A stretch of 45,504 nucleotides of DNA. It comes from Bacteroidales bacterium. Its GTDB lineage: Bacteria; Bacteroidota; Bacteroidia; Bacteroidales; Azobacteroidaceae. Location of the stretch: NCBI GenBank assembly GCA_031553415.1, contig JAVBLO010000087.1, positions 1-45,504 of the forward strand, written 5' to 3'. This document shows positions 426-28,745 of this stretch, piece by piece (positions within the stretch are counted from its first letter, which is position 1; every line of letters begins with the position of its first letter). The notes beneath the pieces were generated by a model, which searched no databases, was not told where the DNA came from, and saw only the letters and a list, made by a program, of their open reading frames with translations. Both the position numbers and the translations under genes were made by a program.

Positions 426-800
426 TTATTTGATTTCTTTTCTCGAACTTCTGAGCATTAACATTAACAATGTGGATAATAAAATATTTAAAATCGGTAC
501 TACAAGAAATATTACAGTCCAATTGTTTCCATGCGATTCAAGAACAAATAACACACAGAGAAAAATCAATGATACAACAGAGTACAATAATAATGAAATA
601 CTCAACAATAAAACAATTTTTCTATTCTTAAGCCACAATAAAAATGAAACAATTATAAGACAAATACTTAACACCAAGAAAGAGGACATTACATAATTGT
701 ACACCAGCCAAACTCTCAACTCATTCAGTAATAACAGAACACCTTGCAACAACCACCAAACGAATGAAATAACTATAATTTTGTCATTTAACCACTTCAT
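426..800 (-). CDS. small multi-TM membrane protein, putative immunity protein for the adjacent orphan Rhs-CT toxin
   Basis: 124-aa ORF, last gene of the minus-strand array, 5 bp downstream of the orphan toxin ORF. The product is strongly hydrophobic with about 3-4 predicted TM helices. The region is very AT-rich and low-complexity, so the ORF could be spurious; a competing 88-aa plus-strand ORF is less plausible. Confidence 0.35.
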   Translation of the reverse strand: MKWLNDKIIVISFVWWLLQGVLLLLNELRVWLVYNYVMSSFLVLSICLIIVSFLLWLKNRKIVLLLSISLLLYSVVSLIFLCVLFVLESHGNNWTVIFLVVPILNILLSTLLMLMLRSSRKEIK

Positions 801-1422: not shown

Positions 1423-1965
1423 TTATTCTATTATATTTTCAAACTGCACCGAACTTCCCAAATATCGAGGGGCAAAAACTGTATCAGGTCTCAAATTTAC
1501 CTCCAAATTTCCTAATTCATTGTAGTAAAAATAAATGGAACGAAATATAAATAATTCTGAAGAGTTTTTTATTATCCATCCATTAGTTAGTTTTATGCTG
1601 TCAGGTTCATTCTTAATAATCCATTGGCTTTTTTCGGATACTATCAATTCATCAATAGAAGAAACATAAAAAACACGTTTATCCAAAATATCAAAATAAA
1701 ATGTTGGATTACTTTCTTCTATGAGAGATTTATAGCCAGGACCCAATAAAAAACCTTGTCGAGTAGGAACTTTTTCATTTTGCTCAAGTCCTTGGGTTGA
1801 TTTTATGAAAAAAGTATTAAATTGTGGATGTTCTTCTATGTAAGTCCCGATTACATTCTTTACATCAGCATGTAAATTTAATTCTTTGCAAAATTTTCTT
1901 TCTTGCTTACATGAAACAGTCATGAGCATCCCTAATACAACAACAAAGGATATTAAATATTTCAT
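1423..1965 (-). CDS. lipoprotein, putative cognate immunity protein of the Rhs C-terminal toxin
   Basis: 180 aa. Lipoprotein signal peptide MKYLISFVVVLGMLMTVSC. Starts 4 bp after the rhs stop, the canonical toxin-immunity arrangement. AT-rich like the toxin tip. Confidence 0.6.
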   Translation of the reverse strand: MKYLISFVVVLGMLMTVSCKQERKFCKELNLHADVKNVIGTYIEEHPQFNTFFIKSTQGLEQNEKVPTRQGFLLGPGYKSLIEESNPTFYFDILDKRVFYVSSIDELIVSEKSQWIIKNEPDSIKLTNGWIIKNSSELFIFRSIYFYYNELGNLEVNLRPDTVFAPRYLGSSVQFENIIE

Positions 1966-1968
1966 AAT

Positions 1969-4900
1969 CTACTGCCCTATTGATGGATATGTTCTCAACC
2001 AAGGAACTAATAATGTTTTTCCTGATAACAAATTATCTCTACTTCCCAATCCAGGAATAGACCTAAATCCCTCTCCTTTTACAGACCAAAATACACCATG
2101 AACCTTTCCATCATGACCTATTGTCATAATTGGAAGTCCTCCCATTGCCCTAGAATGACCAACATCGCCTCCGCTCTTGCCTGTAAAAGATGGTGTAGCA
2201 TCCTTTGACGCATCTTGATGGGTATGTACATTCCCTGTAATCTTAAATGTTTCCCCATCCTTGGTTGTGAGTTTTCCATCTTTAACAGAATATTGATATT
2301 TGCTTGGACTTGCATCATCAGCTTTATTTTTATAATCAGGTATAACTAAAATATTTCCATTTGCTAATGGATATCCACTTTCTTCGATTTTCTTCTCTGT
2401 TGCTTGTGACCACATTCGATTATATGCATCCGTTTCATTAGTGAACATAATACTACCATCCTTTCTATATGTTCCCGTCCCATATTTTACTGTCTCCCCT
2501 GCATATTTTTGATTTTCGCCTAGTTTGGAATCTTTTGTAACATTGGGGTCGTATTGTAGTGAGCGGTTCTTTTTATCATCGTTATTTATCCAATACCAAT
2601 CCATGCCATCAGGATCTATTAGGTTCACTGGGTTATTCGCGCAATAAACATACGGACTTATGCTGTAATACTTTTCGCAAAGCGGGTCCATTGTAAGAAA
2701 GCCACCCAGCGGGGAATAATATCCCCTTGCCACGAAATCATACTGATCCAACCCGAACATCCTGTCCAGTTCCTTCCCCCCGAACTTGTAGGGCTGGAAT
2801 TCCCGGTCGTTACGCCTCGGGGATTCTGCCATTACCGAACCGAAAGGGTAATAGTTCGTCACCTGGAAAGTTGTGCCCCACATGTCGAACACAACCCGGT
2901 TGTTACCCAGATGGTCTTTCAGAAAAAAGGTATGGTCGCCTGTCCCGTCATACCGGCAATACCCCTCTTCCGTGAGTACCATCGTCAGGTCTTCCCCCTG
3001 GTAAACCTTGTTACCGCAATAGGTCTTTTCCGTTTCCAAATAATTGTTCCTGTAGTGGCCCATCCTCAGTTTCCTGCCCGAAGCGTCATACACGTAACGG
3101 ATGTCGTTCCCATTGGCAAAGGTAATCTTTTGCGGCAGGTTCAACAAATTATATTCTATGCTTGTGATCCCACGGTTCTTGTCGGATGTCATGTTCCCGT
3201 TGGTATCATAGGTGTATTCGACACTGCCCCCGTTCACGTCCCTGAATTCCATCAAATCGTTAGAAGTGCCGTTGGATGCCATGTCCACCACCTCCTGCAA
3301 CCGGTTACCGTTGCGTTGCACAACATATACGTCATCAATGGTAACGAACCGGTTCGATGTGCCCGAAAAGCCGTTACGGGTCACCATGTTGAGGTTGCCG
3401 TTGAGGTCGTATCCCAGCCTTTCGTTGTAACCGCCATGCGCCACAGACCAATCCTCTCCTTCAAAATAAATTGAGTTCTCCAACCGGTGCAAGCCGTCAT
3501 AACGGAACGAATAGCCCCGTTGAAGAGCGGGTTTGTCCGCCGATTTCCAGCGGATGGCGGAAATATTCCCCGAATAATATACCTTTCCCGAAGGGTCGGG
3601 GTTGTTCGTGTAGAACAACTCTTCTGTGAATTTCGGGGAGGAGATTTTCGTCTGCCAGCCACGGATATTGTAATCGTAACCGGTTGATTCGTTGTATACC
3701 TTTTTGGAGGCGATCCTTCCCCAACCGTCATAAGTATGCCGGGAGAGGGGTATTTCAGGGTTTCCCTGTCCCGGGTTCAATTCATGGTAGGTATTCAGCA
3801 CCCTGCCTGCCCGGTCGTAGGTATAGCGGTACAATTCCGACACCCCATAGGCAAATCCCCCCCCGTCATGGTCGAGGTGTCTTTTATGGGGCAGTCCTGT
3901 AAAGGTATACGATATGGTTTCCCTGTCGTATCCGTTTGTTATATTGCTGGATACGGCTTGCACCACCCGACCCTTGTCGTCATAATAGGAGGCGGACAGC
4001 AGGTAAGTCGAATAATCGTCGAACACCAGCGTCCGGCTCCCGGTCAGCAATCCCTTGGCGGCAACCGGATCGCCGTCCGTCCCATGCCTTTTGTCATTGA
4101 ATCCTGCGGGAAGCAGGTAATCGAGATGGGTATTCGAACGGAAATGGGTCGTCTGTTTGAACAGGTAGTTGTCATAGTAATTGGCAGTTAATAATTTGGC
4201 ATCGGTGAAAGAAACCCCGGAAACGGTGTAGCCCGTCCCCAGGAAATTGTCGCCGGAGTCGGCGGAGAACACAGCCTTCACCACCGCACCGGAGTGTATG
4301 ACCGGGTTTTTGCAGGTACCTTTAAGCACCATCCGACCGAACTCGTCGGGGATCGTGAAGGTATATTCCGACCTGCTACTCTGTACGCTTTCACGAAAGA
4401 TGATCAACCGGTCGGCCTTGTCGTATTGCATCGTCGTTCCGCCCTGTCCCGGAAGCTTTTTCGCAATACACCTTTTCCAGTCATCGTACGAATAGTAATA
4501 CACATATTTGTTGATGACATCGGAGGTGATGGTCCATGATGAGTTTGTATTGAGCAGGGAAGCCGCCATGGGAGGAATCACAAAGCGTAACAGGCCGAAA
4601 TCATCATAAACGTAATAAGTGTCGTGGTTCCGGTTTTGTGACACCTGCCTTGTCAGTAACAGCTGACCCTGCGTGTCCTTGAATTCATACGACTCCTCCC
4701 CGTCTTCCCCCGTGGTTTTGGTCACATAAAGGGTGTTGGATGCGTAGTTCCCTTCTTTCTTCAAGGTATGTGAGGGCAGTACCCGGTACAGGTTGCAGTT
4801 GAGCCGTGTGTCTGCCGATATGTTGAACAGGTATTCGGTTTTGACTGCCTTGCCGTTATCATGCCACTCCTGTCCCGGCCCGAACTGTTGCAGGACGCGC

Positions 4901-5271
4901 TCAAGGGGGGAAGATTCATAGACCGTTTCGGAATAGGGCGCCCGGTCGCCGTTGATTTCCCCGGCTTTGCGGTATATATCACGGACATAGGCCCCGTTGT
5001 TGCCGGCCACGGGCGTGGGGAGGTACTGCCGCCATTCCCTGCCGAACCAGTCATATTCGGTTGCCGTCACTATGTCCTGCCCCTGTCCCCCGGCCCCTTT
5101 TTGTACCGTCTGCACGGGACGTCCCAGACCGTCGAAATAACGGATGGTTTCCATGTACTCCGTCCCGGATTCATTGGTCATCGTGCGCGTTTGGATATAA
5201 TTGCCGGAGGACTGGGGAAACACCGGGAACTGCAAGATTGAAAGCGCCGCTATGATGATATGCTGTTTCAT
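1969..5271 (-). CDS. rhs: Rhs/YD-repeat core protein (TcC-like) with Sec signal peptide and polymorphic C-terminal toxin domain
   Basis: 1100 aa. N-terminal signal-like MKQHIIIAALSILQFPVFPQ. Numerous YD repeats (YDxxGRL-like, e.g. YDGWGRI, YDASGRKL, YDGLHRL). The core ends with ...SPYVYCANNPVNLIDPDGM, the PxxxxDPxGL-type autoproteolysis motif, at about 2601-2615. The final ~210 aa (1969-2601) are AT-rich and contain no Cys. Confidence 0.88.
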   Translation of the reverse strand: MKQHIIIAALSILQFPVFPQSSGNYIQTRTMTNESGTEYMETIRYFDGLGRPVQTVQKGAGGQGQDIVTATEYDWFGREWRQYLPTPVAGNNGAYVRDIYRKAGEINGDRAPYSETVYESSPLERVLQQFGPGQEWHDNGKAVKTEYLFNISADTRLNCNLYRVLPSHTLKKEGNYASNTLYVTKTTGEDGEESYEFKDTQGQLLLTRQVSQNRNHDTYYVYDDFGLLRFVIPPMAASLLNTNSSWTITSDVINKYVYYYSYDDWKRCIAKKLPGQGGTTMQYDKADRLIIFRESVQSSRSEYTFTIPDEFGRMVLKGTCKNPVIHSGAVVKAVFSADSGDNFLGTGYTVSGVSFTDAKLLTANYYDNYLFKQTTHFRSNTHLDYLLPAGFNDKRHGTDGDPVAAKGLLTGSRTLVFDDYSTYLLSASYYDDKGRVVQAVSSNITNGYDRETISYTFTGLPHKRHLDHDGGGFAYGVSELYRYTYDRAGRVLNTYHELNPGQGNPEIPLSRHTYDGWGRIASKKVYNESTGYDYNIRGWQTKISSPKFTEELFYTNNPDPSGKVYYSGNISAIRWKSADKPALQRGYSFRYDGLHRLENSIYFEGEDWSVAHGGYNERLGYDLNGNLNMVTRNGFSGTSNRFVTIDDVYVVQRNGNRLQEVVDMASNGTSNDLMEFRDVNGGSVEYTYDTNGNMTSDKNRGITSIEYNLLNLPQKITFANGNDIRYVYDASGRKLRMGHYRNNYLETEKTYCGNKVYQGEDLTMVLTEEGYCRYDGTGDHTFFLKDHLGNNRVVFDMWGTTFQVTNYYPFGSVMAESPRRNDREFQPYKFGGKELDRMFGLDQYDFVARGYYSPLGGFLTMDPLCEKYYSISPYVYCANNPVNLIDPDGMDWYWINNDDKKNRSLQYDPNVTKDSKLGENQKYAGETVKYGTGTYRKDGSIMFTNETDAYNRMWSQATEKKIEESGYPLANGNILVIPDYKNKADDASPSKYQYSVKDGKLTTKDGETFKITGNVHTHQDASKDATPSFTGKSGGDVGHSRAMGGLPIMTIGHDGKVHGVFWSVKGEGFRSIPGLGSRDNLLSGKTLLVPWLRTYPSIGQ

Positions 5272-5282
5272 GTCTTTTATTG

Positions 5283-8200
5283 TTATTTTTGATAATGATA
5301 CTTATAAGTTTCTATCACCCGCCCGTCGTTGTCCTTCAGTTCCCGCAGCCTCAGGAAATCGTCATACTCGAAGGCTTGCCTGGCGCCTCCGGGGTTGGTG
5401 ATGGCTTTGAGTCCCACCAGCGGTTCATAAGAAAAGGAGGTGGCGACCGCCCTGGGCAACCCTGTTTGCAACAGGCCGTTGTCCAGGCTGTTGGGTGACG
5501 AGTTCACGGTGAATTGTTCTGGTGTCATGCCCAGGCATACGCCCACCTGTTCGTAAGTGGCCCCCTTGATTTCGGCCAAAGGGGAATTTACCAGTTTGTT
5601 CCACAGGTAAATAACCCTGATGGAATCATCCTGGGTAATATGCACCGGATTCCCGTAAGCATCATAGTTGTGGTATCGTATCCTCTCCCTTGGCGCAGCG
5701 CTGTTGGTTTGTGAGGATATTTTCCAGGGGAACACGCCCGTGGGGAACACCTTGTAGCCGGCATGCACGGTGGTTGCCATGCTGCCTTTCGTCACGGATT
5801 CTTTCAGCAGCGTCCCGATTCTCCAACGGCTATCGGACATCAACTGCTTCCGGGCAGTTTCTTCTTCACCGGACAATACCAGGTCGTGTGGATAGTAACG
5901 GCGGACATCCAGCTGTTTGCCGTCGCTGGCCGTCGTCCTGATACGGGTTGGATAGAGCAGCACTGGGTTATTGTATTCATACGAGGTTTCCGTTTCCAGG
6001 CTCTTTTTCCCCCGGGAGTCGAATTGGACACGGTATTCGTTGGATAGCCGGAGGCAGCCGCTGTAGATTTCGTAAGGGTGGTGTACAAGTTCCTCCAAAT
6101 AAGTCCTGCTAAAGCAAGCGGTTTCATCGGGGTCAGGGTCATATACTCGTGTTTTTTGTTCCACTTTCCCCACCGGTATGTCTTTCCTGTTATATGTGGA
6201 ATACCAATAATGCACACTATCTACAGGTACCAACACCCCATTGTCTACCTTGTAGTTGCTGCATGACACCAGCTTCCCTTTCAGCCAGTCCGCCTTGGGG
6301 TCCAAAGTGATGGAGGTTCCGGGAACCCTGTGAGTATTATACTCCAGGTCATAGTTGAGGCCGTATTGATACCTGGTCAACCCCGCTTTCTCCATCTCAT
6401 CTTCCGAATGGTAAACGTGTTTATATTCACTGACCCATTCATACAGCACAGGTGCACCTCCCGCATGGGACAGGTTGATGACGGGGGAAGAACTGTAAGT
6501 GCGTGAACGGAATTGGTCAAAATAATCCGCAGCATAATCTATAAACGCCCCCCCAATATAAAGTCTTTTCCATTTTACATACAAGTTTTCCCGTTCCACC
6601 ATATAATCATCGATGTCAGGTATTTTCCTGGGGATTCCATATCCGTTCCCATCCAATCCGTAGGAGAATTCCTTAAAGACATGCTGGAGATTGGTGTTGT
6701 CTATCTCCCTGATTTGATGTATCCTTAATCCCCCTGCCAGTTTTGGGGTGTCATGTTCATAATCATAATACCGGTTTGCCTGGTAGAAAAACATGGTTTC
6801 CCCTCCGGTGGGATAAATGATTTTGGTCAACACCCCGGCCTGCATGTATTCTTCATCGGGTTCTTTTGAGGCGCTTCCGATCGTTGTCATCCGGTGATAC
6901 CCCCACCCGCCGGGAAGTCCGACGCTTACCTCGGCCAGGGGGACGGCGCTTTGGCTGCCGTCATTGGCCGTACCGTTGTAATACCCCCAATGGTCGGTGT
7001 TTTTATCAATAACGGAGGGCATGGGGATTTGAGTGTTGTATTCAAACCGGTACCGTTCCTCCACTTTTCCCTGCCGGTCAAGGATTTGCAGGGAGTCGAG
7101 TTTATATCTTCCTACTCCACCCAATACCGGAAGGAAACAGTTCTGGAAAAACCGGATTTCGCGCACGGTGTTACCTGAATTGCCACAGACTTTGATGGAG
7201 TTCAGCATCCTGCCCCCATCTACTTTGTGTATGATTTCAAACTTGACAATTCCCGCAGAAAACCTGATCTCCTTCACTTTCCTCATTAAAACAGAATGGT
7301 TCGACAGGTAGTATCTCCCATCGGCAAGGTCAGCATGATCATTGTATTCCCGGAAAATGCTCTCATCCCCATCATGAAGTATTTGAAATATCTCGAAACA
7401 ATTGCTTATCCTGGTCTTCTTTACAGGGAGGAAATACGATACGGGTTCATGATTTGTATAAAGAAATTCATAAACCGGATGCTCTAATAATGTGACATAA
7501 TCCGTCTGGCAGAAAGTCGTTTCCCAAATCGGTTCGTGGTATGAAAAGGATATCTGCCTACCGCTTATCCCTGATCGCATCTTACTCGCTTTCCAGGCGG
7601 TTGAAACAGTTTGGTGGGGATTGGGGACATAGGTGGAAAGTTCGGAATTTTCATATGGGAACTCATAATGAATCCCTTTTTCATCAGTGATGTTGAAGTC
7701 CGGGTTGAGATTGAAATTGGAAATTATTTTCAATGGCTCATAGGGATGAGGCACTATGATGGCCGTATCCCGGGTCCGGGGTTGCCTGCTATAGTAAAAG
7801 GAGCCTGTCTTGTCTGCCAGTTTGTAATGGAAGTCGTCAGGTTCTTCATCTTCCAGGCCGTCAACTATTCTCAACAAGTAGAGGTTTTCATGTTCATTAT
7901 AGCCTAAATTTTGAGAATTTGTCCTCAAATATCCCCTATCGTCGGCTACCCCATTGATATTACTAGAAATGAACGGCTCAGCATTCAGCGTCCAGCCCAA
8001 TCCGACCCACCCGTTGGGCTCGTTCACCTTGATTCCGGAAGAATGGTAGCTCAAGGTGATGGGAAGCTTTAAATCGCCATCCTGTATTTCGTAAAGGGGG
8101 ATTTCTATCCGGACAAGCCCCGTGCCGTAATTCACCGGGTAATTGATATACTTTGCCAGTGAAGCCGCTTCGGGGGAAACAGGTGTAATCCTCGGAAAAT

Positions 8201-8378
8201 CGGTTGTTAACTGTGGTTGGGTGGAAGATGATCTGAGCATCATCCGGGTCGTGTCATGGGGAAACGGGACCAGGGAATCGATGCTTGTGAATACAACTTG
8301 CGCCTGTGTGTTCAAAAGAATGAAACACGGGAGCAATGCAAGGATAGTTTTCATAATGAATATAAGTCTGTTCGTCAT
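5283..8378 (-). CDS. SpvB/TcB-like protein with Sec signal peptide, C-terminal YD repeats (B-component-like partner of the Rhs core)
   Basis: 1031 aa. Likely true start is the internal MKTILALLPCFILLNTQAQ (signal peptide). The SpvB-domain hallmark PVNYGTGLVRIEIPLYEIQDGDLKLPITLSYHSSGIKVNEPNGWVGLGWTLN compares with TcB's LSLPLPIS...FTLNYNSG...GLGWD. It ends with YD-repeat-like ...FEYDDFLRLRELKDNDGRVIETYKYHY. Its stop lies 11 nt upstream of the rhs ATG, in a different frame. Confidence 0.75.
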   Translation of the reverse strand: MTNRLIFIMKTILALLPCFILLNTQAQVVFTSIDSLVPFPHDTTRMMLRSSSTQPQLTTDFPRITPVSPEAASLAKYINYPVNYGTGLVRIEIPLYEIQDGDLKLPITLSYHSSGIKVNEPNGWVGLGWTLNAEPFISSNINGVADDRGYLRTNSQNLGYNEHENLYLLRIVDGLEDEEPDDFHYKLADKTGSFYYSRQPRTRDTAIIVPHPYEPLKIISNFNLNPDFNITDEKGIHYEFPYENSELSTYVPNPHQTVSTAWKASKMRSGISGRQISFSYHEPIWETTFCQTDYVTLLEHPVYEFLYTNHEPVSYFLPVKKTRISNCFEIFQILHDGDESIFREYNDHADLADGRYYLSNHSVLMRKVKEIRFSAGIVKFEIIHKVDGGRMLNSIKVCGNSGNTVREIRFFQNCFLPVLGGVGRYKLDSLQILDRQGKVEERYRFEYNTQIPMPSVIDKNTDHWGYYNGTANDGSQSAVPLAEVSVGLPGGWGYHRMTTIGSASKEPDEEYMQAGVLTKIIYPTGGETMFFYQANRYYDYEHDTPKLAGGLRIHQIREIDNTNLQHVFKEFSYGLDGNGYGIPRKIPDIDDYMVERENLYVKWKRLYIGGAFIDYAADYFDQFRSRTYSSSPVINLSHAGGAPVLYEWVSEYKHVYHSEDEMEKAGLTRYQYGLNYDLEYNTHRVPGTSITLDPKADWLKGKLVSCSNYKVDNGVLVPVDSVHYWYSTYNRKDIPVGKVEQKTRVYDPDPDETACFSRTYLEELVHHPYEIYSGCLRLSNEYRVQFDSRGKKSLETETSYEYNNPVLLYPTRIRTTASDGKQLDVRRYYPHDLVLSGEEETARKQLMSDSRWRIGTLLKESVTKGSMATTVHAGYKVFPTGVFPWKISSQTNSAAPRERIRYHNYDAYGNPVHITQDDSIRVIYLWNKLVNSPLAEIKGATYEQVGVCLGMTPEQFTVNSSPNSLDNGLLQTGLPRAVATSFSYEPLVGLKAITNPGGARQAFEYDDFLRLRELKDNDGRVIETYKYHYQK

Positions 8379-8400
8379 ATCGGATTCTTGTATGGATTCG

Positions 8401-9519
8401 TTAATGTATTTTCAAGATTTTCGCCCCGACAGGATAGTCATCGAACCACATATTGAGGACATATTCGCCCGGAATAAATGGGGACATGGGGATTGACAGG
8501 TGATGGACGCCCGCAGCCAGGGCTCCGTAACTCCGTTGCCACAAAATCTTTCCCATCCGGTCACCCAACTGCATCCTGACCTGCCCGGTTCCAGGCATGT
8601 AAATCTCCGCTTCAAGGTTCGTGACCACGGGATTGGGATAGAAATTATATGTCAGGCCAGCCCAGGGACCTTCCGCACCGCTTACCCCCAAGGAAGGGTC
8701 TTCCCGGACAGACAGGTTTTCGACGTCTTCCACCGGGTAAACATGTTTCTTTGGTGGATAAAAGAAGGAGACTTCCTCAGGAAGAACAGTCTCATCATAT
8801 TGTGTCGTGGTGTTGCGTACGGTCTCAAAAATGGGGTAGCGGTATCCTTTTGCATACCAGCGGTATGTTTCGGTTTCATGTATCGGTAAGAGGGATAAGG
8901 CCCTGTCGATACTGTCGGAAGAAACAATGCTGTCAACCGTATCCCGACCGGCAAATGTGATGGGTCGTGACGTATCGGCCGTTTTCACGACAGTTCGCAC
9001 CCGTATCACGTGATGCAAGGTGTCCTTACCGGGAAGGATAAGCATCCCGAGTGCATCGGCATGGAAGGATAAAGTTCCCATTGAAGTGGTTTTTAACCGG
9101 TCGCAATATTTCCCCTTACCGGAAAAATAGCCATGTCCATAATCGCCATAACGGACAGGAAATTTCATTAACAACGCAGGTTGCCGGTATCTGAGCAATG
9201 TGGAGGCATTCTCAAATCCCCAGAATAACAGGGAATCTCCCGACAGGCAATAGTAATAGGAAGTTTCCCTTTCGGTTCCCACAACCAAAGAATCGTTTAA
9301 TGCATGGTAAGTGAGTTTGTACTCTTCTTCGGTTACCTTCAGCCGGCTGAAGTCCCAAAGTACATTCTCTCCCGAACGGCCGGGATCTTTGTACTCTACC
9401 TGTTGCCTGGTGATTTCATCACCTGCCCGGTACATGTTGTGCTTGTTTTGCAAGCTGTGTTGGGCAAACAAAGGAAATAACCCGGCAATGGAAAGGAATA
9501 ACGTGAGTTTTGTTTTCAT
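8401..9519 (-). CDS. secreted protein with T9SS C-terminal sorting domain, first gene of the Rhs operon-like array
   Basis: 372 aa. Signal peptide MKTKLTLFLSIAGLFPLFAQ. The C-terminal ~80 aa, ...FYPNPVVTNLEAEIYMPGTGQVRMQLGDRMGKILWQ...PGEYVLNMWFDDYPVGAKILKIH, fit the Por/T9SS CTD pattern (YPNP ... GxYxL ... KIxK). The N-terminal domain is unrecognised. Confidence 0.7.
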   Translation of the reverse strand: MKTKLTLFLSIAGLFPLFAQHSLQNKHNMYRAGDEITRQQVEYKDPGRSGENVLWDFSRLKVTEEEYKLTYHALNDSLVVGTERETSYYYCLSGDSLLFWGFENASTLLRYRQPALLMKFPVRYGDYGHGYFSGKGKYCDRLKTTSMGTLSFHADALGMLILPGKDTLHHVIRVRTVVKTADTSRPITFAGRDTVDSIVSSDSIDRALSLLPIHETETYRWYAKGYRYPIFETVRNTTTQYDETVLPEEVSFFYPPKKHVYPVEDVENLSVREDPSLGVSGAEGPWAGLTYNFYPNPVVTNLEAEIYMPGTGQVRMQLGDRMGKILWQRSYGALAAGVHHLSIPMSPFIPGEYVLNMWFDDYPVGAKILKIH

Positions 9520-9720
9520 AACACCATCTTAAAATTAAATAATAGTTTTATAAATTAACGTGAAACAGGTATTTTTTAATAAAAACAAAGAAAACTCACA
9601 ATTGTTTAATAAAAATATATGTTATTTAGCATAAAAATGAAAAAATGACTATCCTGTGATTATGGGTACGGAGGCAGTCATAACGTTTCTTAGGAAGCGA
9701 TGAGCCCCTGTTCGCCGCAG

Positions 9721-9894
9721 TCTGCTGTGCGTTGCGCTCGGCAAAAGCTCTGCTTTTGTCGTTGTTAAAAGTAAATCTCCTGATTTACATACCTGTTGAA
9801 GCAGAGCTTCACTTCTAACTCGACATAGTGAAAGACATTATGCCGAACGCTATACTATCAGACTATGCTCAACAGGGGGTTACTGTAATAAATG
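9721..9894. repeat. 175-bp structured repeat, copy B
   Basis: Direct repeat of 201-375. It is preceded at about 9650-9720 by a degenerate remnant of the same rhs-core sequence that precedes copy A (gtcataacg...gcccc). The outer stem is conserved, with compensatory changes relative to copy A. Confidence 0.8.
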
Positions 9895-10015
9895 AAAAGA
9901 TACTTTTTGTTTTTATAAACCAAAATATTAAGATTAATAATTATATTGCAAAATATTCGATTTGGGGATGATTTGAATGTTTTGCTGCGCCCAGCGGGTG
10001 CTTCCTATGTAAGCA

Positions 10016-10519
10016 GTGGCTTTAAGCCACTGTATTACAAGTATGGCATCCCACTTAAGAAAAAGGTCAGATGCTAATACTTATGCCAAACAATACAGGA
10101 CATCAAGATCTGATTGTAAAAACTGCAAATTGCGACAAGAATGCATAGGAAAACGTGTCCATAAGTCTCTGGAAGACACTTTGGATAAACCTTATTATGA
10201 GAGAATGTACAAAAGGGTTAATACAAAGACGGGAGCAAAGATGATGAGAGTAAGGGCAGCTACAGTGGAACCGGTATTAGGAACATTACTCCATTTTGTT
10301 GGAATGAAGAAAGTTTATACCAAAGGGATTGATTTGGCGAACAAACATGTTCTGTTGGCTTCTACTGCTTATAATGTCAAGAAACTATTAAAGTTCAAGG
10401 GAATAGACAGTGGGATTAAATCAGTACTGAATGCTTGTATTAAAGGTAAAGATGGAATTCTTATCGTTATCACAGACTTAGCTGAACGGGGGAACTACAA
10501 TCTCACTGTTTATAATGAA
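10016..10519 (+). mobile_element. IS1182/IS5-like transposase, 5'-truncated C-terminal remnant
   Basis: The ORF (193 aa as listed) has the CKNCKLRQEC Cys motif and ...TVEPVLGTLLHFVGMKKVYTKGIDLANKHVLLASTAYNVKKLLKF, typical of the C-terminus of IS1182-family DDE transposases. The N-terminal ~250 aa, including the catalytic region, are absent. It is immediately right of repeat copy B. Confidence 0.6.
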
Positions 10520-10592
10520 GTCGGGGTACAAAGGTCTTGTAGTCGGAGTACAAAACATATGTACTCCGACTACAAGACCTTTGTACCCCGAC
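10520..10592. repeat. perfect palindrome: 32-bp arms (GTCGGGGTACAAAGGTCTTGTAGTCGGAGTAC) with a ~9-nt loop, at the 3' end of the transposase remnant
   Basis: Direct inspection: 10520-10551 is the exact reverse complement of 10561-10592. The listed ORF reads through it, which is probably artefactual. Confidence 0.85.
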
Positions 10593-10745
10593 TATAGAAA
10601 TTAAATGCTCTTAGCATCTGCTTCAAAAAGTAACTGATTCGGTTTTGTAAGACATAGAAATTATCAATTAACTTTGTAACCTGAATTTACTTTCCTGTGT
10701 CATATCTGTACAAACTAATTATTAACATTTTTATAAATACAGATT

Positions 10746-11135
10746 ATGGAACAGTTTTTTGATTCATTGGTACCTATTTTGGGAATTCTTTGTGCAGTAG
10801 CTCTACCGATTGCAGGTGGAATTTTTTTGGCTACAAAAAATATCGTAAATAAACACAACGAAAAAATGAAAATGATTGAGGCCGGACTTATTCCTCAGGA
10901 ATTGCCAAAAGAAGTAAGTAAAACTGCTACTTTGCGCAATGGGATGCTGATGTTGGGATTAGGTATTGGTGCAATCCTTGGTTTTTTCCTGGGAGAATGG
11001 CTCGGATATGAAAAGCTTACATTTGCTTTAATGGTTTGCTTATCTGCTTTGACACTGGGAGGATTGGCGTTGTGCCTTTGTTATGTATTTCTTTATCGTT
11101 CGAATAAAGACGAAAATACAGACATTGACGAATAA
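10746..11135 (+). CDS. small membrane protein (unknown function) upstream of the ECF sigma factor
   Basis: 129 aa with two or three hydrophobic helices. Its stop is 15 bp upstream of the sigma factor gene. Confidence 0.5.
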   Translation: MEQFFDSLVPILGILCAVALPIAGGIFLATKNIVNKHNEKMKMIEAGLIPQELPKEVSKTATLRNGMLMLGLGIGAILGFFLGEWLGYEKLTFALMVCLSALTLGGLALCLCYVFLYRSNKDENTDIDE

Positions 11136-11150
11136 TCCTTTTCAAATGAA

Positions 11151-11714
11151 ATGGAACAACAAATTATAGCATCTGTTCTCAACGGTAATACGAATGCGTT
11201 TGCAAAGCTTATAGAAAAGTATGCCGATATGGTTTTTTCCATTGCTTACCGTATATTACGTAATACGGAAGATGCGGAAGAAGTCGCTCAGGATGCATTT
11301 TTAAAAGCGTTCAATGCATTGAAATATTTCAGGAATGATTCTAAATTTTCGACCTGGCTTTATCAAATTGTGTATAATACTGCAATTAACAGGGCCCGTA
11401 CACAATTCAAAGAAACATCTTATGAAAATTATAACCATATAAATGAATCGGATTTTGAAGTATATTCATCGGAATTGGTTAATCTGGAGTCTCAGGACAG
11501 AAGAATTATTATTGAAAAAATGTTATCACAAATGTCTCCTGACGAAAGCCTTTCATTAACGCTTTATTATCTGGAAGAATGTTCGATAGAAGAGATTGCC
11601 AGTATTACCGGATGGCGTGAGTCAAATGTAAAAGTAAAACTTTTCCGTTCCCGGAAAAAATTTTACGAATTATTGAAAGATTATATGAAAACAGAAATCG
11701 ACATTTTGCTATGA
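11151..11714 (+). CDS. RNA polymerase ECF-type sigma-70 factor
   Basis: 187 aa. Region 2 (FAKLIEKYADMVFSIAYRILRNTEDAEEVAQDAFLKAF, STWLYQIVYNTAINRAR) and region 4 (LTLYYLEECSIEEIASITGWRESNVKVKLFRSRKK) are typical of ECF sigma factors. Confidence 0.88.
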   Translation: MEQQIIASVLNGNTNAFAKLIEKYADMVFSIAYRILRNTEDAEEVAQDAFLKAFNALKYFRNDSKFSTWLYQIVYNTAINRARTQFKETSYENYNHINESDFEVYSSELVNLESQDRRIIIEKMLSQMSPDESLSLTLYYLEECSIEEIASITGWRESNVKVKLFRSRKKFYELLKDYMKTEIDILL

Positions 11715-12079
11715 ATATAAAAGAGATAGATGAAGAAAAATTATTAAAAGGATTTTTGAAGGAAACTTGTCTTAAAGCCCCGGAAAATCTTTCTAAAAAT
11801 GTGATACAAATGATTGCGTTACAAGAAAAAGCTAAAGCGGGAGCCAAGCTACGGAGAGGACGACTGAAAAAAGAGGCTTTGCGGGGAGCCTGTTTCTTTT
11901 TATGTGTTTTTATTGTTGGTTTCCTTTTTCTGTTCTTTACTAAGGATGCATCATTCCGGATATCTCCTTCTCATGAACATGAGTCGTTATTCCTGATTCT
12001 ATTTGTTGTATCCGGAATTGCAGCCTCTTATTTTTTCCTGAAAGAACTTCTGAACCGTTTATTGCTAAGGAAACTATAA
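11711..12079 (+). CDS. putative anti-sigma factor (single-pass membrane protein)
   Basis: Start overlaps the sigma stop (ATGA). 122 aa with a cytoplasmic N-terminal part followed by TM segments, the classic ECF sigma / anti-sigma arrangement. Confidence 0.5.
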   Translation: MNIKEIDEEKLLKGFLKETCLKAPENLSKNVIQMIALQEKAKAGAKLRRGRLKKEALRGACFFLCVFIVGFLFLFFTKDASFRISPSHEHESLFLILFVVSGIAASYFFLKELLNRLLLRKL

Positions 12080-19837: not shown

Positions 19838-22800
19838 TTATTTCTTCAATGCTTTCATAATTCCTTCCAAACCTTCGTTGAATTGTGCTAATTGTGCGAC
19901 AATTTGTCCAACCTGGTTATTCTTATCAATACCAGCTAACTTGTTGTTTTTAAGGAATATTTCTTTGATTGTTTCCCAGCGTTTCCGGTCGGAATCGGTA
20001 AATAATCCGGCAATTTCCTTTATTTTCAGCAAGTTGGCTTCATTTTCGGAAGTCAGGGTTTGTGCTTCACTTTCGTAGTGGGTCATGATCAACTCATTGA
20101 TCTCGGTTATGTTCATTAATGGAACAATGAGGCTAACCATTTTATTCATATCGCGGTATGAGCCTTGCAATTTAAACGCTGGTTCGGTGCGATACGCTTC
20201 CTGCATGGCAGCGCTGGTTATGTATGTCTGGTTTACTTTCAATACGAAATTGCGAACCAATAACGCATTTTTAACTACAGCAATAAAATCATCTACATCC
20301 TGCTGGATATGGTTTCCTTCCAGGTCGGGAAAGTTTCCGCTGTTGGTTTCAATAAAGTCTACCAGATTGTAAAAATCATTGAAACTTTTGGAGGCAATTT
20401 TTTGTAAATACGGATTTTCTACAATTGCATTTTCCAATAAACTGAGTTTGAAAAGATTTTCCGAGCTGCCGATTACATCGCCCAGGTTATAAATATCAGC
20501 ACGGTTGGCCAACATGTCAGGAATCTGAAATTTTTCCCCGCTTTCGGTATATGGATTTCCTGCCATGATTACACAGAAACGTTTTCCCCGTAAATCGTAA
20601 GTTTTGCTTTCTCCTTCGAAAATGCCGTCCATTTTACGTTGTCCATCAGCTAAGGAAATAAATTTTTGCAGAAATTCAGCGCTGCAATGTTGTATATCGT
20701 CCAGATACAACATAACGTTATCGGCCATCTCGAATGCGAGGTTGATTTTCTTCAATTCTTCACGCGCACCTGAAGTTTTTGCTTCAGCAGGGTCGATAGA
20801 AGTAATGGAATGCCCAATAGTTGGTCCGTTGATTTTAACGAAATTCAATCCCATGGTTTTGGACAGGTATTCCATTAAAGTTGTTTTCCCATATCCCGGG
20901 GGAGAAACCAGCAACAACATTCCCATGCGGGCGGTACGTTTGTTTTCGCCTGCGGTTCCGAGTTGTTTGGAGAGATTGGCTCCAATCAACGGAAAATATA
21001 TTTCATTGATTAATTTGTTGCGGACAAAAGAAGTCAGCACACGCGGTTTTAATTCGTTCAACTTAAGCGTTTTCTTGTATTTTTCAACCAGGTTTTCTTT
21101 TACTTCGCTGAACTCGTTGAATTCAGGAACACTGACTTCTGAGAAATGTGATAACCGCTTGATAAACGAATGATAATCCAAAGTATAAACACCATTAACG
21201 ATAACTGCATGGTTTCCTTTCAGGCTTTTAATTTCGGTTTTATCCGGAGCTTTAAGAAGTTCATAAGTTTGTTCTCCGAATAGTAACAAACAGGTCGCTT
21301 CTTCTGCGTACTTCTTTTCTTCCGAATAGTTTTTGGACGCATCTAAGAATGACTGCATCCAGTTGGAAGCGAGATAGAACCGCTCTACCCAATCAAAAGA
21401 TTCATCTTGAATATCTTTTTCAAAATCATTTAAGAATCCGGTTTTCGTAGCATAAGCCAAAAACGCCAACCGGAGTTTTTCTGCCTGACCGCTTTTGGTA
21501 AAAGTTGGAGATACTGCAAACTCCCGGAATAAATAATCTGCAATTTGTTGCGAAGTAACATTTGAAAAAACCAATGTAGTATTCCACTGTTCGAACAGTG
21601 TTTGAATCCGTTCAATAACATAACGGAAATTTTCTGAGCTGGGGAATACTTTCAACACAGTGCTGGCAGCAATAATCAGTTTGTTGAGTTTTGCTTTTTC
21701 ATCTTCTTCCAAACTATTCCAGAAAAGTTGTGCAACAACACGGAGATGTGGATGGAAAGACAGCATATCCAAGTGCTGATACAACAAATCTAGTACTTCA
21801 TAAATGCGTAAAGCATCATAATCGTGCACTCCTTTCAGGTAAGATTCGGAGTAATTTTGTTCTGCTTTTCGGGTGATATATTCTTTCGGATTGAATTTTT
21901 TACTCGTTTGTTTGGCTAAAAATGTTTGGTAAGCAAGGTATTCGGCACGATAAACAACCTTGTTTTCCGAAAGAATTTCCTGTTCCCAGATGCACCTGTA
22001 ATGGTTGATTTTTTCATTATCCAGGAGTTGGTAAAAACTTGTTCCCGTCAGGTGGTAATATAATCGGTCGTTTTTCCTGACAACGGTCAAATCTAACGGC
22101 TGTTTGCTAACAGTGAATTTGTAAGTACCCAGACTGATGATTTGTTCTCCATCTACAAACAATTCCGTGCGGTCTTTCAATATGCGTAAAGCATCTTCCA
22201 ATGAAGTTTTAAGGCAGTTTTCGAGATTTTCAGCTTTCGAAACATCTCCCAATAATTTGAGTTCTTCAACTAATTTCCGGACTTTATCAATCATCAGGTC
22301 AGTTGAAAAGAAAGCTTGTATTTCTTCTTTGGTCTTGAATGATTGGGCTTTGTTTTCGATATTCTTCAACACCCGGAGCCCGATTTGTTCGAGCGAAGAA
22401 GTCCGGTGGTTGATTTGTTCCTGTAATTGCGCCTTTTTACCATCAAATGCTTTGGTAATTTCGTCACGTTTGTCTGCAATTTTTTCGACAAATTCGTTGA
22501 AATCGGCGAATTTACTTTCCAATTCTTCGACCAGAACACTTATTTTGGTAAAATATTCATCACATTTCCCAGGAGAAGTTGCCAGTTCCAGGTAATTAAC
22601 AATGCTTTGTTCCAACAAGGTAAGTTGTGCATGGAATTCAGCCACGGATTCCCCGGTTTTCAAAGAGTCGGTTTTCCTCTTTAACCGGGCGCGCACTTCA
22701 TTCAACGATGCGAATATCAGTGAAATTTTTTCGACAATGCGGGTAGCCTGGGTTTTATCTTCAATTTTCAGGCTGTTCAAGATATCTATTAAAAGCTCAA

Positions 22801-24670
22801 GTTCGGATGAAATCAGTTTGCAGTTTTCATCTATTTTATTGGCATCAATAACTTTGGTAACTGTTTCAATCTGTTCTTTTTCGATTGCAACTTTTTCTTC
22901 ATAAGGAACCAAAGCCTCATCTTTCAACAGAAACTCAACTGTTTTATCCGAAAGTTTTTCATTGGTTTCGGCCAGTTGTTTTTTAAGTTCCTCAATTTTC
23001 TCCGAATCAATATACTTTATATTGCCTTTCTCAATGACTTCGCCTTGTAACTTCCGGGTTTCGGCCAACAATTTTACCAGACTATCGAGATTATCATATC
23101 TATTATTCTTGTAACTGAATAATAAACTTTCAATCTTTTCGATTGTTTCATCAAGCTGTTGGGATGCATATTTTTTTTGTGTCTGTACTTTGGCAAACTC
23201 ATCGATAGCAGTTTCTGCAATGCTTTTTATGTGTTTCAGTGGTTCGGAGAGGCAATATGTTTCCTTATCTGCAATCCAGAAAAAAGCATCAATAGTATCG
23301 TTCGCTTTTTTGGCTATATCAACATAAAGTCCGTCGTAAGAATCTTCCTTATTGATTAATTGTATAATTTCGTGGCATTCAGCCATTGCCTTTACAATAT
23401 CTTTGTTTCCGATTTTATAGAGTTTATTATCCTTTTTTCCCGTATTTTCGGTAAACTGGCGTTGGTAAGGCGTTTGCCAGATTTGCACCTGGTGATACTT
23501 GGTTGCGTCTTGTTCGGTTTTAAAATAAATCAACCGTCCATCGGCATATAATGTAAAACCGCCACATATAATTGGTGTTTCCACTTGTTGTTTGATGATG
23601 TTGTATGACATCAACACGTATGTATGTGTATCGCCTTGATAGAAAAGGTAAAGGAAATCTTCTCCGTTTCCGGATAAAATCCGGCGCACGAATTCCATAT
23701 TATGTAAGTCACTTTCGAATATTTTATATTCTCCTGTTTGCAGGTAATAACCGTTGGGGAAAATGATTCCCTGATTATCAGGCAACAAAATTCCGGCATT
23801 CAACAACATGTGAATATTGACTACTTCCTTGGTGCGTGTATTGAAAATATATGAACGGAAATCTTCTTGGTAAGGCTTGATTTTAACTGCTAACAAATTG
23901 CCTAAATCGGCATAATAATATTCTGCATCATCTAATTGCTGGTCTTTATTCTCAACTGCTTCGGCATAAATTCCCTTTCCTGTCCTGGTATTGTCTTCAA
24001 TTTTGAATGTAATATCTCCGCCAACAGCCTCGATAAAAACTTTATTCATGATTGAAACATGCGGGTGAAGTCCGAGGCGGCGGTCTTCCAATGTGGTTTT
24101 ATTCCATTGGAACTCATGTTGGGATGGTTTGACTACTTCATGGATGCTCCGGTCGTCGATGTAAACCAGTTTGTTGTCTTTCATCAACCACTTGAAAGCT
24201 TTGGCGTCGGCAATGGTTTTTCCTGTCTGGAAAATCATATACAAGTAATTATCGGTTCTCCTGAAACGGGAGAAAATGGCATTCCGGTAATATTTGTAAA
24301 GATTGTTATAATCGTTTACAAAATCCGGGTTATTGATAAGATCTAATGGTTGAGGATTGAAATGGTTATCTTCAAATTTATAAATACTGAAAACATCGCT
24401 GAGCTGGATATCCGACCGCAGGCCAAAATGGACATTGTATGCAAAGATGCACAAATCGCCAATAACCATAATCCCCCTTGCCACACAATTGTTTTCGGTA
24501 GCAATGCGCTGGTTGGCTATCAGGGAAAAATCAACCGAACTGAAAACTTCTTTGCGCGATTCGTTCAGTTGGTTAAGGCGTTTATTAAGCTCGTCTTTTT
24601 GCGCTTGAAGGCGTTTTTTTATGATTTCGTAGGTGCCGGAATCGAGGGTTTCTATATTGGGTTGTTGCAT
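19838..24670 (-). CDS. giant (1610 aa) coiled-coil protein with C-terminal AAA+ (MoxR/dynein-type AAA_5) ATPase module; function unknown
   Basis: Walker A LLVSPPGYGKTTL and Walker B VMLYLDDIQH. VIMAGNPYTESGEKFQIPDMLANRAD matches the AAA_5 sensor region. About 700 aa of heptad-rich coiled-coil lie in the middle. The N-terminal ~450-aa domain is unrecognised. Confidence 0.8.
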   Translation of the reverse strand: MQQPNIETLDSGTYEIIKKRLQAQKDELNKRLNQLNESRKEVFSSVDFSLIANQRIATENNCVARGIMVIGDLCIFAYNVHFGLRSDIQLSDVFSIYKFEDNHFNPQPLDLINNPDFVNDYNNLYKYYRNAIFSRFRRTDNYLYMIFQTGKTIADAKAFKWLMKDNKLVYIDDRSIHEVVKPSQHEFQWNKTTLEDRRLGLHPHVSIMNKVFIEAVGGDITFKIEDNTRTGKGIYAEAVENKDQQLDDAEYYYADLGNLLAVKIKPYQEDFRSYIFNTRTKEVVNIHMLLNAGILLPDNQGIIFPNGYYLQTGEYKIFESDLHNMEFVRRILSGNGEDFLYLFYQGDTHTYVLMSYNIIKQQVETPIICGGFTLYADGRLIYFKTEQDATKYHQVQIWQTPYQRQFTENTGKKDNKLYKIGNKDIVKAMAECHEIIQLINKEDSYDGLYVDIAKKANDTIDAFFWIADKETYCLSEPLKHIKSIAETAIDEFAKVQTQKKYASQQLDETIEKIESLLFSYKNNRYDNLDSLVKLLAETRKLQGEVIEKGNIKYIDSEKIEELKKQLAETNEKLSDKTVEFLLKDEALVPYEEKVAIEKEQIETVTKVIDANKIDENCKLISSELELLIDILNSLKIEDKTQATRIVEKISLIFASLNEVRARLKRKTDSLKTGESVAEFHAQLTLLEQSIVNYLELATSPGKCDEYFTKISVLVEELESKFADFNEFVEKIADKRDEITKAFDGKKAQLQEQINHRTSSLEQIGLRVLKNIENKAQSFKTKEEIQAFFSTDLMIDKVRKLVEELKLLGDVSKAENLENCLKTSLEDALRILKDRTELFVDGEQIISLGTYKFTVSKQPLDLTVVRKNDRLYYHLTGTSFYQLLDNEKINHYRCIWEQEILSENKVVYRAEYLAYQTFLAKQTSKKFNPKEYITRKAEQNYSESYLKGVHDYDALRIYEVLDLLYQHLDMLSFHPHLRVVAQLFWNSLEEDEKAKLNKLIIAASTVLKVFPSSENFRYVIERIQTLFEQWNTTLVFSNVTSQQIADYLFREFAVSPTFTKSGQAEKLRLAFLAYATKTGFLNDFEKDIQDESFDWVERFYLASNWMQSFLDASKNYSEEKKYAEEATCLLLFGEQTYELLKAPDKTEIKSLKGNHAVIVNGVYTLDYHSFIKRLSHFSEVSVPEFNEFSEVKENLVEKYKKTLKLNELKPRVLTSFVRNKLINEIYFPLIGANLSKQLGTAGENKRTARMGMLLLVSPPGYGKTTLMEYLSKTMGLNFVKINGPTIGHSITSIDPAEAKTSGAREELKKINLAFEMADNVMLYLDDIQHCSAEFLQKFISLADGQRKMDGIFEGESKTYDLRGKRFCVIMAGNPYTESGEKFQIPDMLANRADIYNLGDVIGSSENLFKLSLLENAIVENPYLQKIASKSFNDFYNLVDFIETNSGNFPDLEGNHIQQDVDDFIAVVKNALLVRNFVLKVNQTYITSAAMQEAYRTEPAFKLQGSYRDMNKMVSLIVPLMNITEINELIMTHYESEAQTLTSENEANLLKIKEIAGLFTDSDRKRWETIKEIFLKNNKLAGIDKNNQVGQIVAQLAQFNEGLEGIMKALKK

Positions 24671-24777
24671 AGGTATTTATATAAAAAGAATTATCGGAAG
24701 TTATTAGAATTCAACCGGGAGTTACCGGAATAAATTCTCCTGATAAATTCCGATAACTTCTGATTAAATTCCAAAAA

Positions 24778-26859: not shown

Positions 26860-26864
26860 AATAA

Positions 26865-27566: not shown

Positions 27567-27616
27567 AGTAGTGTATGTAGTTTAATTGACAAAGATAAAA
27601 ATGATATTTATTATAT

Positions 27617-27937
27617 TCATTTATAAATATTCCTCAACCACGGAATTTTTGAAAAAAACCGATACAGTTTTGTTTCAAACTTTGTTGGTTGCAAATCTTC
27701 TTCCTGAAGGAAACCTCCATCTTTCAAAATCCGGACGGCCCGCTCCACATCATCTTCCATAACCTGCAGTTTCACTCCTCCAATCGCTGTAGATATAAAA
27801 GGGTGAACCTGCGAAGTTAATTCATCCTGAACAAAACAATATATTCCTTCCGATTCCAATAAGCTTTGCGCAATACCTATTTCATGCGAAAAAACAAATG
27901 TTTTGACGGTTACAAGTTTGTTTCCTTTTTCTGACAT
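27617..27937 (-). CDS. DUF2007-like small protein
   Basis: 106 aa. LVTVKTFVFSHEIGIAQSLLESEGIYCFVQDE matches the DUF2007 pattern. Confidence 0.5.
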   Translation of the reverse strand: MSEKGNKLVTVKTFVFSHEIGIAQSLLESEGIYCFVQDELTSQVHPFISTAIGGVKLQVMEDDVERAVRILKDGGFLQEEDLQPTKFETKLYRFFSKIPWLRNIYK

Positions 27938-28743: not shown

Positions 28744-28745
28744 GA

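Follow-up and report, generated by a model that had tools for sequence, protein, structure and literature searches.

A Bacteroidota Rhs toxin cassette with a probable two-part, Sec-exported cocoon and a dedicated T9SS-sorted partner protein

Cocoons of the rearrangement hotspot (Rhs) type are understood in two settings, namely toxin complex (Tc) toxins, in which TcA acts as the injector, and the spikes of type VI secretion systems (T6SS). How such a cocoon might be assembled and delivered with neither TcA nor a T6SS at hand is the question raised by three genes located between positions 1969 and 9519 of contig JAVBLO010000087.1 (GenBank assembly GCA_031553415.1), a 45,504-nucleotide (nt) stretch of a Bacteroidales bacterium of the Azobacteroidaceae that was analyzed as a whole and is referred to here as the window. 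Gene 1 encodes a 372-amino acid (aa) protein, gene 2 a 1031-aa protein (B-like), and gene 3 a 1100-aa protein (C-like). We found that the region is an operon-like polymorphic-toxin cassette and a typical member of its family. It probably makes an Rhs-type cocoon from two separately Sec-exported halves together with a dedicated partner that bears a type IX secretion system (T9SS) C-terminal sorting domain (CTD), with no involvement of TcA or a T6SS.

A conserved three-gene cassette

The three open reading frames (ORFs) lie on the minus strand with spacers of 22 nt (gene 1/gene 2) and 11 nt (gene 2/gene 3), and the reading frame shifts from gene 2 to gene 3, exactly as an earlier note on this DNA, made from the sequence alone, had described. 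Since Met9 of the 1031-aa protein is nearly invariant in a 56-sequence family alignment, translation of gene 2 probably starts at 8354, and the gap to gene 1 therefore grows from 22 to 46 nt.

An exhaustive representative search with residues 55–600 of gene 2 recovered 16,243 cluster representatives (clusters defined at 50% identity) with a cut-off of E ≤ 1e-3, of which 12,386 remained at the stricter E ≤ 1e-10, and almost all of the top 150 matches were about 950–1,300 aa long. A genome scan anchored on the B-like gene and run with a 13-sequence alignment revealed that, in every related locus with enough downstream DNA, the B-like gene is directly followed by a gene for a DUF6443-containing Rhs protein. 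These B-C pairs come from Bacteroidales metagenome-assembled genomes (MAGs), Prevotella, Pedobacter albus, Mucilaginibacter (two cassettes), Paradesertivirga, Flavobacterium soyae, a Flavobacteriaceae isolate, Dawidia soli, and Segetibacter, and the adjacency spans at least five Bacteroidota orders. Natural B-C fusions were limited to 2 of 241 family members (P0261, 2113 aa, and P0291, 2033 aa), in which a short linker connects the final YD repeat of B to DUF6443 and no signal peptide lies between the two parts. Because fusions are this rare, splitting is the rule, and the view that genes 2 and 3 are genuinely separate stands, given also their frame change and 11-nt spacer; that natural fusions exist at all argues that B and C act as one unit.

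A metagenome scan anchored on gene 1 yielded 453 relatives, from which 80 loci were kept, 64 of them with at least 500 nt of downstream DNA. In 62 of these 64 loci, the next same-strand feature after the CTD-family gene was a B-like or a DUF6443-Rhs gene, and the same pattern was seen in three long contigs examined directly. The order CTD-B-C was the commonest, with B-CTD-C and CTD-C also present. This near-constant adjacency marks the CTD protein as a dedicated cassette component. The CTD family itself was seen in Bacteroidales-type loci only. One related locus (L083, 3369-13304) holds two CTD-family genes in a single cassette, in the order CTD-B-CTD-C.

Neither T6SS, VgrG, and PAAR genes nor TcA were detected by Pfam among the window's other large ORFs, as the earlier note had also reported. 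A TcA-sized or TcA-like gene was found in neither the window nor the related loci, and no T6SS genes were present in the eight annotated related loci (L003, L005, L007, L008, and L024-L027). With fusions rare and T6SS genes absent from these eight loci, homologues of the cassette appear to be neither routinely fused nor placed beside T6SS loci.

All three proteins begin with what, by inspection, are signal peptides, each comprising a charged (basic) n-region, a hydrophobic h-region, and a cleavage site made of small residues followed by Gln (LFA/Q, TQA/Q, and VFP/Q); Gln at +1 is typical of Bacteroidota substrates of signal peptidase I. The same leader design recurs in homologues of genes 1, 2, and 3. 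Specifically, a hydrophobic 9-mer occurs within the first 60 residues of 222 of the 241 B-like members, and matches to residues 55–600 of gene 2 typically begin 25–50 residues into the target, just past the leader. The assertion that each cage component has its own signal peptide is thus backed by inspection as well as family conservation. Moreover, some B-like homologues carry extra Pfam domains, namely PF13004/PF19190 (which we take to be BACON-type), PF00041 (fn3), and PF00801 (PKD), one C-like homologue carries Ig_7, and several C-like homologues have 100–740 extra residues ahead of DUF6443. In our reading, the extra domains appear typical of surface proteins, and, together with the conserved leaders, they point to an extracytoplasmic location.

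Predicted architecture of the three proteins and the toxin module

Gene 2 contains neither an Rhs core nor a toxin, and its sequence-model matches comprise a weak DUF6531 (residues 80–134) and one weak YD repeat (residues 990–1021). Its structure model (pLDDT 82.5, pTM 0.84) proved more informative: a Foldseek search placed YenB first (E 3.9e-19, query TM-score [TMq] 0.40), followed by TcdB2-TccC3, with 629–634 residues aligned to TcB structures, which is the largest structural coverage of any match. In comparison, T6SS Rhs shells and teneurins reached a TMq of only about 0.1–0.15. The model also matched the isolated SpvB N-domain (E 2.4e-6). As modeled, gene 2 is therefore TcB-like in fold: an Rhs-type shell comes after an SpvB-N-like domain, and TcB is the best overall match. 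It departs from the TcB family, which is made in the cytoplasm and partnered by TcA, in having a conserved signal peptide and no TcA.

Gene 3 is, judged by its domains, an unambiguous Rhs toxin. Besides DUF6443 (Table 1), it matches the YD/RHS repeat models PF05593 (E 6.3e-15) and TIGR01643 (above its cut-off), and its Rhs core scores 57.3 bits against the TIGR03696 cut-off of 32.5. The core contains the PxxxxDPxG(L/M) signature as PVNLIDPDGM at residues 881–890, with the DPDGM motif that the earlier note had pointed out at residues 886–890. By analogy with the Rhs and TcC families, we infer that the core self-cleaves after DPDG. A phmmer search of gene 3 against PDB returned nothing at E ≤ 0.01.

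Gene 1 is a member of a protein family whose sequences, each about 375 aa long, share 40–53% identity over alignments spanning 95–100% of their length. The whole 372-aa protein has no match in Pfam or NCBIfam, and its last 87 residues alone gave sub-threshold Por_Secre_tail matches (PF18962/TIGR04183; 12.2 bits vs a cut-off of 27, and 15 vs 23). PF18962 was matched by 34 of the 41 full-length homologues (E ≤ 0.01; best 4.9e-12). In the structure model (pLDDT 88.3), the extreme C-terminus forms a seven-stranded immunoglobulin-like beta-sandwich whose best fold matches are solved CTDs, with PorU and PorZ also among the matches. The CTD is thus real at the level of the family and of the predicted fold, and the T9SS-CTD proposed for this protein is upheld, even with its own copy scoring below threshold. 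In one related locus (L026), a gene for GldH_lipo (PF14109), presumably a gliding/T9SS-associated lipoprotein, lies close to the cassette.

The toxin tip of gene 3 has no Pfam or PDB match, either alone or as a family. Its alignment contains invariant E68, H121/T122/H123, and D141 (numbering of the aligned tip segment), and on the Glu, HxH, and Asp alone we would conjecture a metal-dependent hydrolase or JAB-like metallopeptidase. In the related locus L027, an orphan tip about 62–65% identical to that of gene 3 is followed by a lipoprotein that is 62% identical, with the same leader, to the one encoded after gene 3. Since both recur together and the lipoprotein leader is retained, tip and lipoprotein are likely to form a cognate pair with immunity acting outside the cytoplasm. 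The resident C-like gene of L027 (2083-5451; Dysgonomonadaceae contig) has a Toxin-JAB1 tip, and the homologue of the window's tip is an orphan copy behind it, an arrangement that seems to illustrate tip exchange between cassettes. Likewise, the window's own orphan tip and the 124-aa membrane protein after it look like a displaced toxin/immunity module usable for tip swapping, and homologous cassettes have Ntox33, Ntox44, or Toxin-JAB1 tips with small ORFs after them. Such a tip/immunity organization reads as the signature of an interbacterial polymorphic toxin rather than of an insecticidal Tc toxin.

Table 1. Coordinates of the cassette and of the toxin/immunity module behind it
Feature	Position	Strand	Remarks
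Gene 1, 372-aa secreted partner	8401..9519	-	signal peptide, soluble beta-barrel-like N-domain, T9SS type-A CTD
Signal peptide of gene 1, MKTKLTLFLSIAGLFPLFA before Q	9463..9519	-	read from sequence; same leader and A/S-Q site across homologues
N-domain of gene 1, about residues 29-255	8755..9435	-	all-beta, barrel-like
T9SS type-A CTD of gene 1, residues 288-372	8404..8658	-	YPNP, GEY, and KILK motifs
Gene 2, 1031-aa TcB-like shell half (predicted)	5283..8378	-	signal peptide, SpvB-N-like domain, YD-repeat beta-sheet shell; start probably M9 at 8354
Signal peptide of gene 2, …MKTILALLPCFILLNTQA before Q	8301..8378	-	leader conserved; hydrophobic N-terminal stretch in most members (see text)
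SpvB-N-terminal-like domain, about residues 60-345	7344..8201	-	conserved block SPEAA…KYxNYPV…TGL…IPLYEI…LSYHSSG…GLGWTL
YD-repeat shell segment of gene 2, about residues 361-1031	5286..7298	-	
Gene 3, 1100-aa TcC-like Rhs toxin	1969..5271	-	signal peptide, DUF6443, YD repeats, Rhs core, toxin tip
Signal peptide of gene 3, MKQHIIIAALSILQFPVFP before Q	5215..5271	-	comparable leader in 19/19 C-like homologues examined
DUF6443 domain, residues 28-148, start of C-half shell	4828..5190	-	PF20041, E 3.8e-39
Rhs-associated core, residues 807-890, ends PVNLIDPDGM	2602..2853	-	TIGR03696, E 1.6e-15; presumed aspartyl autoproteolysis site
Toxin tip of gene 3, residues 891-1100	1972..2601	-	17 homologues, mostly orphan tips
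Candidate cognate immunity gene, 180-aa lipoprotein (…LMTVS before C)	1423..1965	-	62%-identical protein after homologous tip in L027
Orphan Rhs tip, 199 aa	806..1405	-	begins within core-tip junction (YTQCANNPIRNIDLRGDS); comparison with gene 3
124-aa polytopic membrane protein, candidate immunity for orphan tip	426..800	-	from position only

Delivery of the cocoon and the genomic neighborhood

In the mechanism that we propose, gene 2 would provide an SpvB-N-like cap and part of the YD shell, and gene 3 the remaining shell (DUF6443 and YD repeats), the self-cleaving core, and the enclosed C-terminal toxin. All three proteins would pass the inner membrane via Sec, in line with the observed signal peptides, and B and C would function as one unit outside the cytoplasm, as the observed strict synteny and natural fusions suggest. 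The two halves might then close a shell around the cleaved toxin, and the T9SS might export the CTD partner, which would be retained on or released from the surface and could dock, anchor, or target the cocoon, after which the toxin would reach a competitor bacterium. Given that the immunity protein is a lipoprotein, the toxin may act, or be neutralized, in the periplasm. Judging from the sequences, T9SS-dependent export of the cassette is plausible. The more specific idea that the T9SS serves as an interbacterial toxin-delivery route, in which a surface-anchored CTD partner recruits, pilots, or displays a periplasm-assembled BC-like cocoon in a contact-dependent manner with neither TcA nor T6SS, is one that we put forward tentatively, as a possibility with the odds against it.

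A number of results weigh against the reading of a TcB-like cage exported with the help of the T9SS. The SpvB/TcB hallmark ascribed to the 1031-aa protein survived as an SpvB-like fold with YenB as the top Foldseek match and failed as a sequence-model match: the SpvB N-terminal domain PF03534 did not match gene 2 at E ≤ 0.1, nor did any TcdB model, including the TcdB mid-N and mid-C domains of Pfam. Searched against PDB sequences, a profile of the full B-like family recovered YD repeats only, with no SpvB or TcB, and a profile of its N-terminal part retrieved nothing, SpvB and TcB sequences included; one family member (P0081) does have a precomputed PF03534 match. The TM-score of gene 2 to TcB is only about 0.4, gene 2 is about 440 residues shorter than TcB (1031 aa vs about 1450), and the secondary structure of its model contains no run of about 24 short strands that would correspond to a beta-propeller. 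Because gene 2 is shorter and lacks an obvious propeller, the shell may close differently from that of TcB, and we infer from the model that gene 2 represents an SpvB-N-like cap and a YD half-shell with no TcA-docking gate. As regards export, the lumen of the T9SS translocon measures about 70 Å and BC cocoons have a width of about 100 Å; if these sizes apply, it is doubtful that an assembled cocoon could pass through the T9SS. A term search of PMC10994853 found nothing on the size of the lumen. No T9SS type-A or type-B CTD was detected on gene 2 or gene 3 with Pfam or NCBIfam, and the 45.5-kb contig, the sole portion of the genome covered, contains no T9SS core genes. Finally, B/C pairs occur without this CTD family in Sphingobacteriales, Flavobacteriales, and Cytophagales and in three loci of one Bacteroidales MAG, and hence the CTD protein is not universally required.

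With B and C free of a CTD, pairs that do without the CTD family, and a cocoon that is probably too wide, exit independent of the T9SS becomes a serious rival. The same split cocoon would then leave through outer-membrane vesicles, lysis, or another route, and the role of the CTD protein would be limited to that of an adhesin or receptor-binding accessory secreted on its own. In keeping with this, the CTD-less lineages, to which some Bacteroidales loci belong, often have a different upstream accessory (the U family, described below), and canonical Tc toxins leave by lysis (PMC10847048). However, genes of the CTD family hardly ever occur apart from these cassettes (the 62 of 64 loci above) and can sit between B and C, which argues for a direct physical or functional link and against a loosely associated adhesin, and we judge a T9SS-free exit to be possible yet somewhat unlikely. 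A role of gene 2 as an independent YD-repeat surface protein (adhesin, chaperone, or receptor), with the toxin closing its own shell and DUF6443 acting as an N-terminal plug, would fit the four CTD-C cassettes that have no adjacent B gene (L025, L026, L061, and L076) and the length of the gene 3 shell (residues 20–890), the TcC shell being shorter. Yet the order of B then C is strict across orders, in the fusions B passes from its final YD repeat into DUF6443 without an intervening signal peptide, and the structural coverage of gene 2 is largest against TcB, all of which makes independence quite unlikely.

The identity of the target bears on the same issue. That the best whole-chain structural matches of gene 2 are insecticidal TcB proteins, and that named relatives come largely from termite-gut and protist-associated Bacteroidales, might suggest an anti-eukaryotic Tc-like toxin directed against a host or protist; this we consider improbable, since the tip and lipoprotein are kept as a pair in another genome (62% identity), orphan tip and immunity modules lie downstream, homologues have Ntox-type tips followed by small ORFs, and a TcA translocator was not found in the window. 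Bacteroidales Rhs toxins are often discussed as T6SS cargo, and an ordinary cytoplasmic T6SS Rhs effector with mis-called starts was therefore weighed as well. Nothing was found in its favor, and it was rejected as highly improbable, given that leaders are conserved in all three families and that neither the window nor the related loci have a PAAR, VgrG, or T6SS gene. We thus retain the split, Sec-exported cocoon with its CTD partner as the probable reading.

Further analysis of the window revealed steps in guanine-plus-cytosine (GC) content, which is 49–54% across 3–9 kb (the three genes) and 32% at 1–2 kb, where the end of the tip, the immunity gene, and the orphan tip are located, compared with about 38% for the remainder of the window. 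These steps match the classical pattern of a GC-rich Rhs core and an AT-rich tip and suggest foreign origin. The closest relatives of the window are termite-gut-type Bacteroidales, and its remaining large ORFs with a Pfam match are mostly housekeeping genes (hybrid-cluster protein, FGAM synthase, and topoisomerase IV subunit A). Upstream of the cassette, positions 9520-10015 were inspected by eye only and contain no clear Bacteroidota -7 motif, and a DDE transposase truncated to its C-terminal part (DDE_Tnp_1_6) is located about 500 nt away, at 10016-10597 (+). In other lineages, the position of this transposase is held by a gene of the U family, so a gene upstream of the cassette may have been lost.

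Proteins of the U family, about 340–430 aa long, have a signal peptide, contain GNVGIGT repeats, and share a helical C-terminus that is conserved; their genes stand upstream of B/C or CTD/C cassettes (L007, 8576-9826 and 18617-19642; L008, 8554-9753; L025, 8400-9695; also L072, L073, L078, L079, and L107). The family occurs in Sphingobacteriales, Flavobacteriales, and Bacteroidales, sometimes alongside a CTD gene, and is absent from the window. It has no Pfam match at all, and the idea that its C-terminus is a tail-fiber or S74 chaperone-like domain was dropped for want of Pfam support. Two other loci (L016, 1164-2627, and L014, 7469-8854) encode, upstream of the B-like gene, a protein of about 460–490 aa with a signal peptide and an outer-membrane-barrel-like C-terminus, which is only 39 nt from the B-like gene in L016 and has a weak OMP_b-brl match in L014; this protein might be an alternative partner in the outer membrane. 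In L012 (8984-9700) and L014 (8925-9659), the ORFs immediately upstream of the B-like genes have N-termini that, by eye, resemble the HU-DNA_bdg/DUF4469 family, and the window itself encodes an HU-DNA_bdg/DUF4469 protein at 44245-44850 (+).

Two further groups of genes were recorded in the window. A small cluster divergent from the toxin cassette, at 10746-12079 (+), comprises a DUF6249 gene, an extracytoplasmic function (ECF) sigma factor, and a 122-aa ORF with no Pfam match. A co-directional block at 19838-29138 (−) comprises a 1610-aa DUF3686/DUF7902/AAA ATPase, a 693-aa protein with no Pfam match, a YqiJ-like membrane protein, PspA/IM30, and a CesT_Tir_1/YbjN-like protein, and may be a membrane-stress or defense island unrelated to the toxin cassette.

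Relation to known systems

Next to the TcA-injected and T6SS-borne cocoons, the cassette would represent a third setting, abundant across Bacteroidota including human-gut and termite-gut lineages, in which a split, Sec-exported cage has no injector and is accompanied by a T9SS-addressed protein. It poses the questions of whether the T9SS has a part in bacterial warfare and how BC-type cocoons devoid of TcA deliver their cargo; the key to both would be how a shell of roughly 230 kDa crosses or leaves the outer membrane and how its toxin gets into a target cell. Should the T9SS delivery route prove true, it would be a contact-dependent weapon used by thousands of lineages. The three conserved families and the U family provide genetic handles in culturable Flavobacterium, Pedobacter, and Prevotella.

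The TcB-TcC pair of Tc toxins (YenB/YenC2 and TcdB2-TccC3) is alike in consisting of two adjacent genes, the first with an SpvB-N-like domain and shell, the second with a YD shell, an Rhs core, and a variable toxin; it also provides the best whole-chain structural matches to gene 2, and natural B-C fusions occur in the present family too. However, Tc B and C proteins are cytoplasmic and freed by lysis, whereas both have Sec signal peptides here. Furthermore, the cassette has no TcA, its gene 2 is shorter with no evident TcA-docking beta-propeller and no match to SpvB or TcdB hidden Markov models, and it includes immunity genes, which point to bacterial targets, as well as a T9SS-CTD partner. 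A survey of Tc toxins (PMC7861908) mentions neither Bacteroidetes nor signal peptides, and none of the papers found by our literature search mentions DUF6443.

The T6SS Rhs effectors (RhsA, RhsP, Tse5, and Tre23) share with the cassette an Rhs core with PxxxxDPxG, a polymorphic tip, an immunity gene, and orphan tips, but in them one chain makes up the whole closed shell, the partners are PAAR, VgrG, or chaperones, and a signal peptide is lacking, in contrast to the split, Sec-exported proteins described here. WapA is a Sec-dependent YD-repeat toxin of Gram-positive bacteria. Together with the extracellular teneurins, it resembles the present proteins in that its Rhs/YD shell is Sec-exported and works outside the cytoplasm; the comparison with WapA draws in part on PMC12704120. 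These are, however, single polypeptides of one-membrane bacteria or eukaryotic membrane proteins, whereas the cassette has a split cage and a T9SS-sorted partner, and the two membranes of its producer make an outer-membrane step necessary.

Parallels also exist within the phylum, and the suggestion that the arrangement had not been described was overstated, all the more so for a B-like family of more than 12,000 clusters. In Apibacter, as Steele and Moran pointed out, the majority of rhs genes code for SpvB/TcdB N-termini and adjoin genes with T9SS type-A sorting domains, and these authors suggested an association with the T9SS (PMC8125069). Moradali et al. reported a T9SS cargo gene, PGN_1817, upstream of a strongly induced Rhs locus in Porphyromonas gingivalis 381 (PGN_1817/1818; PMC6775972); PGN_1817 is listed as only 145 aa elsewhere (PMC7712824). 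Ornithobacterium hominis, too, has been noted to have a large rhs gene of the SpvB/TcdB type (PMC6421346). The Apibacter and P. gingivalis adjacencies share with the cassette the phylum, the Rhs proteins with SpvB/TcdB-type N-termini beside type-A sorting-domain genes, and a proposed T9SS link; they differ in that genomic or transcriptomic studies remarked on them without giving any anatomy, structure, or test, and we liken them to the cassette by description rather than by homology to its three families. No experimental, structural, or systematic account of a split B/C pair with a dedicated CTD partner was found in the literature.

A further parallel is provided by the TANFOR toxins of Bacteroidetes, whose neighborhoods are enriched in T9SS substrates and for which export by the T9SS has been proposed (PMC7073777). 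Like the present B and C proteins, they are signal-peptide-bearing polymorphic toxins of Bacteroidota that themselves lack a CTD, but their delivery domain is TANFOR rather than an Rhs cocoon, and there is no split cage. Set against these systems, the cassette is a widespread, uncharacterized variant of the Rhs/BC cocoon toxins, and an Rhs-T9SS adjacency had already been remarked upon in two genome papers.

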